Virus record (IMG/VR): IMGVR_UViG_2740892230_000013
Source: a virus
Taxonomy: Duplodnaviria; Heunggongvirae; Uroviricota; Caudoviricetes
Length of the DNA stretch: 11,897 nucleotides
Direction: 5' to 3' (one strand)
Positions 1,491-11,000 of this stretch are shown here, one piece after another (the first letter of the stretch is position 1; each line of letters opens with the position of its first letter). Under the pieces are notes generated by a model, which was given only the letters and a program-made list of their open reading frames with translations, had not been told where the DNA came from and did not search any database. The position numbers and the translations under genes are program-made.

Positions 1491-2141
1491 TTACAAATTA
1501 AAAAACGCCCTAGAAATGACACCGCCTACCAAAACCCCTACGCAGATAAAGAATATTATTTCTTTTGGATAAAGTCGGATTAATTCTGAAGCACGAAGTC
1601 GGACTTCTGGTAAGGTCGAACTCTCTGTGTGGCTTGATGCCGATTGTTGCTCTAACCACGACAATGCAGACTGTAACTGAGAACGAGTAAGATCGTTTAA
1701 ACGTCCTGTACCGAAATTGATATGGCAATACCGCAGAAGTTTTTGTCGAAGTCCACAGTCTTCACTGTTACGTAGTAATAAACTTACAAGAGCCTTACAG
1801 GCATCATGATCTTTACATCGCTCAAGCATTGCATGCAGAAAACTCTCCGCTGTTTTATATTGATTTACTGTCATATCATCAATACCAGCTACACCAATCT
1901 CCGCATGTACTTTTTGCCAAATAATAAACGCTTCAGTATTGCTAGCTTCTGCAATAGCAGCAACCAAGCTATTTAGCTCCTTACGCTGAGCCTTAAGCAA
2001 AGGGCGATCGTCATCATCATTATTCGAAGGGATTGCGATATTGACGGTCTGAGAACCATCATATCGCTCTATCTGAATATTCTTTTCGTGAAAATCACGC
2101 CCAGCAACGCGATTGTTTGAACCGTTTGAGTTGACGGCCAT
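1491..2141 (-). CDS. Hypothetical tail-anchored membrane protein (soluble N-terminal domain, single C-terminal TM helix)
   Basis: 216-aa ORF with a GGAGG RBS 5 nt upstream of the ATG. C-terminal hydrophobic segment IIFFICVGVLVGGVI. N-terminus carries GSNNRVAGRDF, which matches a motif at the C-terminus of the upstream HTH protein. Sits in the same operon as the repressor and int. Confidence 0.65.
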   Translation of the reverse strand: MAVNSNGSNNRVAGRDFHEKNIQIERYDGSQTVNIAIPSNNDDDDRPLLKAQRKELNSLVAAIAEASNTEAFIIWQKVHAEIGVAGIDDMTVNQYKTAESFLHAMLERCKDHDACKALVSLLLRNSEDCGLRQKLLRYCHINFGTGRLNDLTRSQLQSALSWLEQQSASSHTESSTLPEVRLRASELIRLYPKEIIFFICVGVLVGGVISRAFFNL

Positions 2142-2156
2142 GTCACCTCCCTACTA

Positions 2157-2561
2157 TCACCTACCCTTAGTTTCGTTATAGTCACGACCAGCGATACGGT
2201 TATTACCACCAGAAATATTTAACTCACGTCCTGATGGCTGAGTTTCCTTTTCACTGATCGCACCTTTTAAAGCCCCAATCACCGCATTTTTCACATCTAA
2301 CGAAGCTGCTCGAAAGCGAGTAATCAACTCCTGCTCATCATCGTTATAAGTTTCAGGTGAGTGAATTCCCAACACAACATACTGAACATCAAGGCCAAAA
2401 CGAGACAGCGCTGCCAAATACGCAGCATCAGGAAAGCTATCTCCTTTCTCATATCTAAGCTGAGTTAGCTTTTTGACTCCACCAATGTCGCTCATGGCAA
2501 CTTGACTAAGTCCCAATCTTTCCCTTTCCTCACGCAACCGCTGACCAATATCATTTTTCAT
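2157..2561 (-). CDS. HTH XRE-family transcriptional regulator, probable prophage immunity repressor (C/CI analogue)
   Basis: 134-aa ORF. N-terminal helix-turn-helix of the Cro/CI (XRE) type (QRLREERERLGLSQVAMSDIGGVKKLTQLRYEKG). Divergently oriented to the rightward early operon across a 75-bp operator-like region. Followed in the same orientation by int. Confidence 0.8.
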   Translation of the reverse strand: MKNDIGQRLREERERLGLSQVAMSDIGGVKKLTQLRYEKGDSFPDAAYLAALSRFGLDVQYVVLGIHSPETYNDDEQELITRFRAASLDVKNAVIGALKGAISEKETQPSGRELNISGGNNRIAGRDYNETKGR

Positions 2562-3722: not shown

Positions 3723-3957
3723 NNNNNNNNNNCGCTATTGATGGAGTGGCTCCGGCGGGTAAAAACGGAGCCGACGAAGCCACTTACGTTTATCTGAACG
3801 GCACGCGACTGCTTGTGGAACTTCCGTACCAGACCGTACGAGAAATCATTAGCAAAGCTGAAAAAGCGCGCCAGGCTAATGGCAATGAACCCTATATCGA
3901 AATTATTTGCATGGATTCAGAAGCTGAAATTCAGAAAGCAGATTAAAGGGCGTTGTG

Positions 3958-4200
3958 ATGGGCAAAGAATATAAAACTCTCATTAACAAAGCACTTGAGC
4001 GTTTTTATTTTCGCTTAAGTGCATCAGGCGCTCATGCTGAACGTGCGGCCCGTGACTCATTGACCAGAGCAATCCGAAGTCTGTATGACGTGGCTTTTTA
4101 CGCTGATGATCTGGATGCACTTAACGAACTTTCCGAGCTGATCTATGCCGCAGAATGCGGGGAACATATTGAACCGTATAAGCTGGGAAATATCGCATGA
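3958..4200 (+). CDS. Hypothetical protein
   Basis: 80-aa ORF. ATG at 3958 with an AAGGG RBS about 8 nt upstream; the track's 3955 start is a GTG one codon earlier. Stop overlaps the next start in an ATGA arrangement. Confidence 0.55.
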   Translation: MGKEYKTLINKALERFYFRLSASGAHAERAARDSLTRAIRSLYDVAFYADDLDALNELSELIYAAECGEHIEPYKLGNIA

Positions 4201-4310
4201 GTATATTTATCTCATGGCTTGTTCTGATTATTTCTGTGGTCTGCGCCATTGGGATTATGCGAATTATTCATTCAGTAAAAAAGATTGAACGCTTTTTCAC
4301 TGGCGAATAA
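4197..4310 (+). CDS. Putative small membrane peptide (37 aa)
   Basis: Below the ORF-track size threshold. ATG at 4197 overlaps the upstream stop (ATGA), which implies translational coupling. Product MSIFISWLVLIISVVCAIGIMRIIHSVKKIERFFTGE is a single hydrophobic helix with a basic tail. Confidence 0.4.
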   Translation: MSIFISWLVLIISVVCAIGIMRIIHSVKKIERFFTGE

Positions 4311-4403
4311 CAGAGAAAAATAAAACCACAGGTTAAATAAGAAAATGTAAAAACAATCCGCATTCGCGGAGGTATTCGCATACGCCAAGGAGGCGTAATA
4401 GCA

Positions 4404-5250: not shown

Positions 5251-5373
5251 GAAACCAGAACATGCACACACAAAAAAACCGCTTGCCATGCCGCAATCAG
5301 TCAGGTTACATTTCCGCTGCACCTCACAAAACGGGTGCCGGGTTTCGCAGCCTGCTGACTACACAAGCGCACA

Positions 5374-5393
5374 ACCGCGCCAGCGGTTTTTTT
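5374..5393 (+). terminator. Short intrinsic-terminator-like hairpin (ACCGC-GCCA-GCGGT followed by a 7-T run)
   Basis: 5-bp GC-rich stem, 4-nt loop and a T7 tract on the + strand, inside an ORF-poor stretch between the early small genes and the replication genes. Confidence 0.35.
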
Positions 5394-5448
5394 GTGCGTA
5401 CTGTATTGCCACGTTTTTTTCGCGTCAGAATTATGGCGGGGCGTACGG

Positions 5449-5467
5449 GGCCGACTTCGGTCGGGCC
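5449..5467 (+). other. Stable stem-loop with a UUCG tetraloop (GGCCGAC-TTCG-GTCGGGCC)
   Basis: Direct inspection: CCGAC/GTCGG stem closing a TTCG loop, extended by flanking G/C pairs. Lies in a region without a credible ORF. Confidence 0.35.
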
Positions 5468-5572
5468 GGGTTCTTGTGTAGCCGGTACTGCGAACCTCGT
5501 ACGTCTCGCCACCCACAGTTTCGCAGCTCTGGATGGTGAGTTTTCACAACTTACTACACAAGGGGCCACACC

Positions 5573-9200: not shown

Positions 9201-9624
9201 CAGCATCATTGCACCGCAGGGATTTGAAATTGTACGCAAACCGGATACCCGCCTGGACAGCCGAATCACGCAGCTCTGGCAGCGCCTGAGCCGTAATCAT
9301 GGCGTAAGCAGCACGGAGATCCGCCATAACCCGGTCGCCAGCTATCTGGCACAGCTGGGGGCATCAGACCCTGAAGCCGCCGCACGCCTGGCATCCACAC
9401 TTCAGCAGGACCAGAACACCATGAAAACACCCGTTACCGTGCTTTCTGACATGCTGCGCGCCATCCGCGACGCAGAGCACGCACAGAGAATCAGTGAAAC
9501 CACTGAACGCGCCCGCCGCAAAGCAGACCTGCTGCGGAGTGGCCTGACCAGTGGAAACAAAAAACAGACAGAAACGGGATTCACAAATCCCGTAAATGAG
9601 CAAAAAACGCGCCAAAAAACATGA
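6262..9624 (+). CDS. A: Rolling-circle replication initiator (P2 gene A-type endonuclease), interrupted by five N-gaps with duplicated variant segments
   Basis: HUH motif VEPHHDGTVHWHMMVF (7561-7608) and twin-tyrosine motif SYIATYIGKN (7744-7773), the hallmarks of the phiX174/P2-A family of rolling-circle initiators. Further matches to P2 gpA recalled from memory (FFGIPSRQVWRELRRL, DAGCFATYIEKQGG). ATG 6262 preferred over GTG 6235. The frame continues across the gaps at 8084-8093, 8438-8447, 8823-8832, 8915-8924 and 9023-9032 because each is followed by a re-started overlapping copy. True length cannot be determined. Confidence 0.85.
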
Positions 9625-9665
9625 AGTGCGCACAAAACAGGCAAAAGCGGGATTTCAGAATCCCG
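9575..9665. promoter_or_regulatory. Twin 18-bp palindromes (CGGGATT-N4-AATCCCG) upstream of parM; candidate ParR-binding centromere/operator
   Basis: Perfect palindromes at 9575-9592 (CGGGATTCACAAATCCCG) and 9648-9665 (CGGGATTTCAGAATCCCG), each followed by TAAA. Centres are 73 bp apart. The first lies in the last codons of gene A, the second in the A-parM intergenic region. Neither is followed by a T-tract, so they are not classic terminators. Confidence 0.45.
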
Positions 9666-9943
9666 TAAACGATTAATTAATCAACATAAGGAAAACCGAC
9701 ATGAAAATTTACATCGACGACGGCTCCACCAACATCAAGCTGGCATNNNNNNNNNNAGCCGCAAAGCAGACCTGCTGCGGGGTGGCCTAACCAGTGGAAA
9801 CAAAAAACAGACAGAAACGGGACTCACAAATCCCGTAAATGAGCAAAAAACGCGCCGCGATATATGAAGCGCGCACAAAACAGGCAAAAGCGGGATTTCA
9901 GAATCCTGTAACCGATTAATTAATCAACATAAGGAAAAGCGAC

Positions 9944-11000
9944 ATGAAAATTTGTATCGACGACGGCTCCACCAACATCAAGCTGGCATNNNNNNNNNNT
10001 GTAATCGCCATTCACCACGCGCTGGTCAAATCAGGCATCACACCACAGGAGGTGGATGTGGTTGTCACCCTGCCACNNNNNNNNNNGGACCGAGAGCGGC
10101 GAACGCCGCAACGCCATCAGCCCGAACAGCTTCAAGTCGGAATGGTCTGCGCCGTTCGGTGGCACACAGCCCGCGAACTACATGCTTGATGGCGTGCGCT
10201 ATGGTTTTGATCCGGTCAGCGATCGCTTTGTCCAGACGACCGACACGCAATACCAGTACAGCGATGTGAACGTAATTGCCATTCATCACGCGCTAGTCAA
10301 ATCAGGCATCACGCCACAGGAGGTGGATGTGGTTGTCACCCTGCCACTGAGCGAATATTTCGACACAAACGCACAGCCGGACATGGCCAACATCAACCGC
10401 AAAAAAGCGAACGTCATGCGCCCGGTGGAGTGCCAGAACGGTGAGGCATTCACTATCCGTAACGTGCGGGTTATGCCTGAATCCATTCCGGCTGGCTTTA
10501 AAGCACTGGCTGACATGAGTCCGTTTGAATCCCTGCTGATTGTGGATTTGGGCGGAACCACGCTGGATGTGGCAAAGGTTCAGGGACAACTGGCAGGTAT
10601 CAGCCAGGTATTTTGCGATCCACACGTAGGCGTTTCCCTGATGGCCGATGCCGTACTGTCGGTGATGGCCACTAACGGTATGCGTACCAGTCACCACATC
10701 GCCAATACCATTATCGAACATCGCCATGATGAAGCCTGGCTGCGCCAGCACATCCACAATGACGCGCATTACGCCAGCCTGATGGCGGTTATTCGTGAAA
10801 AGGAAGAAACACTGAAACAACGCGTGATCCGCGCGCTGGCGGGTTTTTCGGGTTACGGGCGGGTGATGGTTGTCGGTGGCGGGGCGGAGATTGTGGCACC
10901 CGCTATCCGCGAAGCCTGCGGAGTTAATGCGACTTTCATCGCGGACGGGGTGCCACAGTTTGCTCTGGTTAATGGGCTGTACGCAATGGACAAGGAGTAA
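9944..11000 (+). CDS. parM: ParM/StbA-like actin-fold partition ATPase (composite across N-gaps; an alternative start copy is at 9701-9746)
   Basis: N-terminus MKI(Y/C)IDDGSTNIKLA. Internal matches to plasmid R1 ParM recalled from memory (ISPNSFK, YSDVNVIAIHHALVKSGI, VMPESIPAG, DLGGTTLDV, VVGGGAEI, LVNGLYAMDKE). GGA RBS 8 nt upstream of both start copies. 10000-10076 is a misplaced variant copy of 10272-10337. Confidence 0.85.

Follow-up and report, generated by a model that had tools for sequence, protein, structure and literature searches.

Several architectures have been described for parC, the cis site that ParR binds in type II ParM-ParR partition cassettes, and for sites of comparable function. 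In plasmid R1, two clusters of direct iterons flank a clear promoter (Dam and Gerdes 1994, as cited in PMC5016525). In plasmid pSK41 of Staphylococcus, ParR binds repeats of ~20 bp as a ribbon-helix-helix dimer-of-dimers and forms a superhelical segrosome (reviewed in PMC5016525). The srpMRC system of SXT/R391 has a site (srpC) comprised of four short direct and inverted repeats 5' of the actin-like gene, and electrophoretic mobility shift assays show binding of the SrpR adaptor (PMC4489591). In AlpAC/alpS, from the Corynebacterium prophage CGP3, an actin-like protein and a site-specific DNA-binding adaptor are implicated in viral DNA transport/replication (PMC5539076). Closer to the locus examined here, Rousset et al. 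(2022) recorded a putative system for plasmid partition, located in the hotspot between gpA and gpQ, in about one-fourth of P2-like phages (PMC9122126). That study only guessed that the cassette might permit plasmid-like maintenance and described no cis site for it (PMC9122126). We analyzed 11,897 nucleotides of viral DNA (IMG/VR record IMGVR_UViG_2740892230_000013; this whole stretch is referred to as the window), in which two palindromes precede parM. Comparative sequence analysis suggests, with a probability that we put at about 0.7, that a type II ParM-ParR cassette, carried by a P88-like prophage, has its ParR-binding cis site (parC) in these palindromes.

The original prediction described two perfect 18-bp palindromes that start 73 bp apart and are each directly followed by TAAA, and both were found as described. 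The first is embedded in the final codons of gene A, as had also been noted; it covers codons T-G-F-T-N-P-V of the gene A frame, the stop codon of which is at 9622 to 9624. The second is intergenic. Relative to the parM ATG at 9701, the two sites begin at -126 and -53. The half-sites within each palindrome are 11 bp apart, centre to centre, which gives four AATCCC-type half-sites in total. The repeated unit extends beyond the palindrome to 42 bp, and the same direct-repeat arrangement is present in phage P88 and in a Hafnia locus (L138; L numbers designate the loci that were compared). When as many as two mismatches were allowed, the window had four palindrome matches versus 0.04 expected, a count reached in 0 of 200 shuffled sequences. 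The 7-mer half-site did not occur elsewhere in the window, and in a complete 34.4-kb relative the palindrome pair was the sole match. A search of the cassette for additional degenerate half-sites or other repeats found none beyond the 42-bp unit, and the window and the whole phage had no more half-sites.

The distribution of the palindromes followed parMR rather than gene A. In P88-like prophages that lack parMR (L014 and L015), homology within gene A ends at ~9515 and the palindromes are absent. These relatives have alternative cargo at the same place, which indicates that parMR occupies the known gpA-gpQ defense/cargo hotspot. The cargo that follows gene A in these two prophages (L014, 3769 to 7056; L015, 3832 to 6392) is an AAA ATPase with an S8 peptidase in one and a Dam methylase with an AAA ATPase in the other. 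In three other gene A backgrounds (L060/L192, L122, and L080) the left edge of the cassette lies 5 to 20 bp to the left of site 1. The gpA of L060/L192 is only 31% identical to P88 gpA, yet its last 21 codons, which bear site 1, are 86% identical. The gpA to which the same 21-codon tail is joined in L122 differs in its 853-919 segment. Because the cassette supplies the last 21 codons, the C-terminal end of the gene A replication protein depends on the cargo.

Loci in which the neighborhood of the sites was rearranged followed the same pattern. In Hafnia L146 a different open reading frame, of 167 amino acids, is located 5' of parM and both sites are still there. Other genes separate gene A from parM in L144 and L146, and in L146 the sites remain beside parM. 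One locus (L036, ~14149, minus orientation) kept site 2 alone, with unrelated DNA beginning 6 bp to the left of it. In two others (L101, ~10256; L228, ~1436) exactly one 73-bp repeat interval is deleted, so that the repeat units are fused into a single site. The only genes common to all of the cassettes are parM and parR. Judged from these junctions, a mobile parM-parR cassette sits in the gpA-gpQ cargo hotspot, and the palindromes form its left edge. The suggestion that the sites couple replication with partition was not supported: the 21-codon tail with site 1 comes with the cassette, is joined to unrelated versions of gene A, and is no part of the conserved gene A sequence.

Conservation of the palindromes in related elements, which the original prediction had offered as a check, was found in four lineages with ParM identities down to 62%. 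In each, a GGG-N10-CCC pair is located at nearly the same distance from the parM ATG: -125 and -52 in the window, -124 and -51 in Hafnia L138 (ParR 73% identical), and -128 and -55 in Hafnia L146 (ParM 62% identical), all with a spacing of 73 bp, and -131 and -59 in Plesiomonas L142 (ParM 63% identical), with a spacing of 72 bp. The background frequency of GGG-N10-CCC was 0.27 per kb over the 1.39 Mb of fetched loci. In an alignment for which the sites themselves served as partial anchors, the palindrome arms were identical to the window at 22 of 28 positions in L146 and 20 of 28 in L142, compared with 26/55 and 22/55 for the DNA between the sites, 1/8 and 3/8 for the palindrome spacers, and 11/35 and 8/35 for the left flank. 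The GGG/CCC cores were identical to those of the window in both loci (12/12; Fisher P = 1e-4 for L146 and 6e-5 for L142). In Hafnia L138 the arms matched at 26 of 28 positions, although synonymous sites in parM differ at 44% (binomial P = 3e-5). Indels between the sites were nearly absent in every lineage, which indicates that the spacing itself is constrained. These comparisons indicate that the sites are under purifying selection. Arms of the AAACCC form were present in some P88-type alleles and in Hafnia L146. Scanning genome contigs with P88 ParM yielded three near-identical loci only and no added diversity; in scans of viral contigs, the Hafnia ParM (P0072) had no match and the Plesiomonas ParM (P0073) had one locus. 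The comparison covered ParR homologues with DNA upstream of parM; two (P0029 and P0031) were left out because their contigs start inside parM.

The sequence of the upstream repeat changed together with the N-terminal strand of ParR. A strand of the form TRR[IV]SFYLKP, in the P88 type, Hafnia, and Plesiomonas, accompanies two GGGAyy-N4-AAwCCC palindromes. The NRKISFYLKP strand of Serratia and Enterobacter phages (L143, L144, and L150-L152) accompanies a 20-nt inverted repeat, ACGGGAACGAwATAGAAAAAT ... ATTTTTCTrTTTC. In IncL and IncF plasmids, DNRKCSFYIYP is found with ATTTTTCT iterons. DTRRKIxFY, from Arsenophonus, Pantoea, Cronobacter, and Mangrovibacter, goes with TTCTC / TATCTC iterons, and KRRTIAFKLNP, of the R1 type, with AAACCCA iterons of 11-bp period. 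The upstream repeat word tracks the ParR N-terminal strand across six PF10784 clades. The plasmid relatives have 4 to 6 or more copies of their own repeat word. The Serratia/Enterobacter P2-like phages (L143, 2880 to 2945; L144, 2883 to 2950; L151; L152) have the inverted repeat GGGAACGAwATAGAAAAAT / ATTTTTCTrTTTCrTTCCC with 26 to 28 nt between the arms, and this repeat has the word ATTTTTCT in common with the iterons of the IncL and IncF plasmids.

It is unlikely that the palindromes bind a protein other than ParR, such as a host nucleoid protein or a phage regulator (C, Cox, or Ogr). Palindromes of this size would suit many dimeric regulators, and the sites are within the region of the early-operon transcript of a P2-like phage. 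However, such a ligand would not be expected for sites that accompany parM-parR when it enters unrelated gene A backgrounds and that are missing from relatives with the same backbone but no parMR. Furthermore, parM and parR alone are shared by all of the cassettes, the motif switches together with the ParR N terminus, and the motif is found nowhere else in the phage genome. The replication origin of P2 and 186 is within gene A. The location of site 1 in the reading frame of gene A and the frequent occurrence of hairpins in rolling-circle origins might suggest that the palindromes are part of a phage replication origin or of another gene A-linked element. This explanation is effectively ruled out because the distribution of the sites follows parMR and not gene A. 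Close relatives with the same gene A and other cargo lack the sites; the 21-codon tail with site 1 is grafted onto a gpA of only 31% identity; and the L146 sites stay with parM even though other genes part it from gene A.

Function at the RNA level is quite improbable as well. Hairpins in the gene A-parM transcript might stabilize the 3' end of gene A mRNA, serve as processing sites, or modulate parM translation. Each site can form a GC-rich stem of 7 bp with a 4-nt loop, and the 146-nt region folded far better than shuffled sequences on the plus strand (z = -6.0). However, this z score is a trivial product of two copies of one palindrome that are able to pair with each other. The approximately 20 types of arm variants in 87 haplotypes are all one-sided, with 0 compensatory changes and with A.A and A.C mismatches included. 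In Plesiomonas L142 the stem is down to 4 bp while the GGG/CCC identity and the distance are kept, which is the pattern of a protein site. A search of Rfam at the sites gave no match. It is less probable still that the palindromes are intrinsic terminators on the minus strand, for example for an antisense RNA or for late-operon read-through. T-rich tails follow both hairpins on that strand, and terminator-like calls were obtained in the window, P88, and Hafnia L138, but the number of calls did not exceed that in shuffled sequences (3 versus 1.5 +/- 1.2). The T-tails and the calls are missing from L142 and L146, which retain the GGG-N10-CCC pair and its spacing. There is no minus-strand gene or promoter upstream of the sites within parM, the plus strand has no T-run, and there would be no obvious rationale for a pair of terminators in fixed phase at a distance of 73 bp.

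If the palindromes are parC, then two ParR ribbon-helix-helix dimers would bind as a pair to each of them, at its two AATCCC-type half-sites 11 bp apart. A distance of 72 to 73 bp is about seven helical turns and would place both palindromes on the same face of the DNA, where a single higher-order complex of ParR and DNA could nucleate on them. ParR, through its conserved C-terminal tails, would catch growing ParM filaments, and the filaments would push copies of the circular phage genome apart. Site 2 is just 5' of the parM ribosome-binding site and the invariant ATTAAT block, and its occupancy may repress parMR as well. We infer all four components of this scheme: ParR binding, its stoichiometry, centromere activity, and repression. 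The compact ParR centromere/operator that had been proposed is probably correct in its first part, which is favored by the linkage to the cassette, the kept position and spacing, and the co-variation of motif and ParR, whereas the case for an operator is weak. We tentatively entertain the broader possibility, which we consider doubtful at present, that P2-family prophages use a minimal, phase-locked, two-palindrome type II centromere together with ParMR to segregate the excised or injected circular phage genome.

Several findings weigh against the parC interpretation. The locus has only four half-sites versus approximately ten iterons in characterized enterobacterial parC, and so small a site might not suffice to organize a ParM-capturing complex. 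Natural variants with a single site (L101/L228 and L036) indicate that two sites are not strictly needed for persistence of the prophage. The anchoring of the arm-versus-flank alignment by the sites detracts from that comparison. Among 90 P88-type haplotypes of E. coli, per-column variability was no lower in the arms than in the flanks, in a test without power because divergence is shallow and arms and flanks are equally quiet. Site 1 is imperfect in approximately one-third of E. coli haplotypes and site 2 in approximately one-fifth. A phmmer search of the Protein Data Bank with ParR found no solved homologue, and the AlphaFold2 model of the ParR monomer, from a 16-sequence alignment, was too poor for a fold assignment (predicted local distance difference test score of 53). 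Finally, no sigma-70 consensus promoter was called near the sites in the window or in three diverged lineages, which leaves the operator role weak.

This last result also does not bear out the idea that the palindromes bracket the likely parM promoter, a consensus promoter having been called in none of the four lineages. The sole candidate is the ATTAAT block, 7 bp 3' of site 2, which might act as a weak -10 element. Weak candidates picked by hand, TGAGCA-N15-TATATG, which the P88 allele has between the sites, and ATTAAT after site 2, were unconserved or poor matches. Instead of having a promoter of its own, parMR may be expressed from the phage early operon.

Table 1. Features of the parM upstream region, the partition genes, and the overlapping contig (positions in the window)
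Feature	Position	Strand	Sequence or content	Remarks
Palindrome site 1	9575-9592		CGGGATT-CACA-AATCCCG = CGGGATTCACAAATCCCG	Within last codons of gene A; proposed ParR site
Palindrome site 2	9648-9665		CGGGATT-TCAG-AATCCCG = CGGGATTTCAGAATCCCG	36 bp 5' of parM ATG; proposed ParR site
Direct-repeat unit 1	9558-9599	+	A-rich lead, palindrome 1, TAAATGA	42 bp; spacing 73
Direct-repeat unit 2	9631-9672	+		42 bp; 79% identity to unit 1
Gene A last 21 codons and stop	9559-9624	+	KKQTETGFTNPVNEQKTRQKT, then stop	Tail belongs to parMR cassette
ATTAAT block	9672-9677	+	ATTAAT	Invariant across five diverged lineages (alignment); possible weak -10
Shine-Dalgarno of parM	9688-9693	+	AAGGAA	Read from sequence; ATAAGGA in relatives, including R1 type
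parM, first 15 codons	9701-9746	+		Broken by N-gaps and duplicated contig ends
Allelic overlap contig	9757-9989	+		94% identical to 9515-9746; not part of element
parM, remainder	10089-11000	+	Actin-like ATPase, StbA_N and ParM domains	Pfam E = 8e-70, 1e-68
parR, 103 amino acids	11005-11316	+	N terminus MTTPTRRISYYLKP; C-terminal tail NIRALFPE	Pfam PF10784, E = 1.3e-23

The products of both partition genes are assignable to known families. ParM of the window is 99% identical to P88 ParM. PF10784, to which ParR belongs, is the family of R1 StbB/ParR, and BLASTP aligned ParR with the R1-type ParR at 33% identity over 55 amino acids (E = 5e-8). In the ParR alignment R6, R7, I8, Y11, L12, K13, and P14 are invariant, as are N96, I97, and P102 near the C terminus. 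Ratios of nonsynonymous to synonymous substitution rates versus Hafnia L138 were 0.04 for parM and 0.22 for parR, which indicates that both genes are under purifying selection. A second ParR allele (4001 to 4315 in both L002 and L004) is 51% identical to ParR of the window, with the central and C-proximal parts replaced. This allele adjoins a 98% identical ParM and the same palindromes, and both its N-terminal strand and its LFPE tail are retained.

The DNA of the window is that of an E. coli prophage of the P88-like type (Xuanwuvirus, P2 family), with 95 to 97% identity to 14 phage records, and its genes include an integrase, a CI-like repressor, gene A (Phage_GPA), parM, and parR. It is interrupted by ten runs of 10 Ns (at 3723, 4610, 8084, 8438, 8823, 8915, 9023, 9747, 9990, and 10077). 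At eight of these junctions the flanking contig ends overlap with 92 to 96% identity, which suggests a mixture of strains. The overlaps produce false tandem duplicates in gene A, parM, and an early open reading frame, and the reading frames are broken. One of the overlapping contigs has palindromes with one mismatch each (9818 to 9835 and 9891 to 9908). The original prediction treated it as a variant copy that suggested the sites to be evolving. The mismatched sites are indeed in the window, but the copy is a second allele that the scaffolder put in from the strain mixture and not a genomic duplication, because the overlapping ends are joined by runs of 10 Ns and the region is single-copy in phage P88 and in all 120 of 120 IMG/VR loci. 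Despite the artefact, arm variants that affect one side only are common in the population data.

Of 5426 complete E. coli genomes, 1335 had the 267-bp region that surrounds the sites, at 1486 chromosomal places and 2 plasmid places. One 34,461-bp circular sequence deposited as an E. coli plasmid (L148; NZ_CP148288.1) is a complete P88-like phage with an integrase, parMR, and both palindromes. It may be an episomal or replicative form of the phage.

Other parts of the window differ from P88 or carry additional elements. The immunity region (1491 to 2561, minus strand) is unlike that of P88, with a 134-amino-acid helix-turn-helix (XRE-type) repressor and a 216-amino-acid open reading frame (phrog_5825, unknown function); the P88 counterpart is a 93-amino-acid C protein. 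Rfam matches at gathering level on the plus strand were to the Hfq-binding RNA isrK (5319 to 5393, 64 bits) and to C4 antisense RNA (5429 to 5516, 83 bits). Here a P2-like prophage has, in its early region, an immunity RNA module of the P1/P7 c4/antirepressor style.

Approximately one-fourth of E. coli P2-like prophages carry this partition cassette, as counted from the complete genomes above, and the frequency given by Rousset et al. (2022) is of similar order (PMC9122126). The probable centromere offers a concrete target for mutation, comprised of four half-sites. A search of the literature on parC of P88/CP-933T found nothing. The candidate centromere bears on the plasmid-like segregation of integrating phages, on the minimum size of a type II centromere, and on the coevolution of a ParR strand with the DNA word that it may read. 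If P2-family prophages do segregate their circular genomes by such a minimal centromere, then an integrating phage would gain a transient plasmid-like state, and the ten-iteron parC of R1 would be far longer than the DNA that a ParM-capturing complex needs.

Compared with parC of R1/NR1, the palindromes have the same position, directly 5' of parM-parR, and the ParR proteins of both systems belong to PF10784. The N-terminal strands of ParR are similar (RRISYYLKP here versus RRTIAFKLNP in R1). An array of 8 to 10 or more direct iterons like that of R1 is absent; instead there are two units only, each an inverted pair, 73 bp apart, one of them in a coding tail, with no consensus promoter between them. 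The proposed contrast with the iteron-type parC of R1 holds for the arrangement but less so for the sequence, because the AATCCC core at 11-bp spacing resembles the AAACCCA iterons of the R1-type locus L013, in which ACCC cores recur with the same 11-bp period. The compact srpC site is a direct precedent on an integrating element, srpMRC being a type II partition system of an element that is normally integrated. However, SrpR has no recognizable similarity to ParR, the 13-bp repeats of srpC differ in sequence, and SXT/R391 is an integrative and conjugative element rather than a phage. The 18-bp unit with half-sites 11 bp apart would fit the dimer-of-dimers mode of pSK41 ParR. The likeness is one of binding mode, and the pSK41 repeats are contiguous and in tandem whereas the two palindromes are separated.

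Phage systems provide two further comparisons. The AlpAC/alpS system also pairs a prophage-encoded actin-like protein with a DNA-binding adaptor, but its proteins are distant, and its host and phage type are different. The Arc and Mnt operators of phage P22 are ~17 to 21 bp long and two-fold symmetric, and they bind two ribbon-helix-helix dimers at subsites ~11 bp apart. The 18-bp palindromes would resemble them in size and subsite spacing, whereas Arc and Mnt belong to an unrelated protein family and their sites are pure repressor operators with no role in partition. The candidate parC, found in a widespread family of prophages, has a new architecture but is an element of a known kind, an expected part of a known system that will not surprise specialists.

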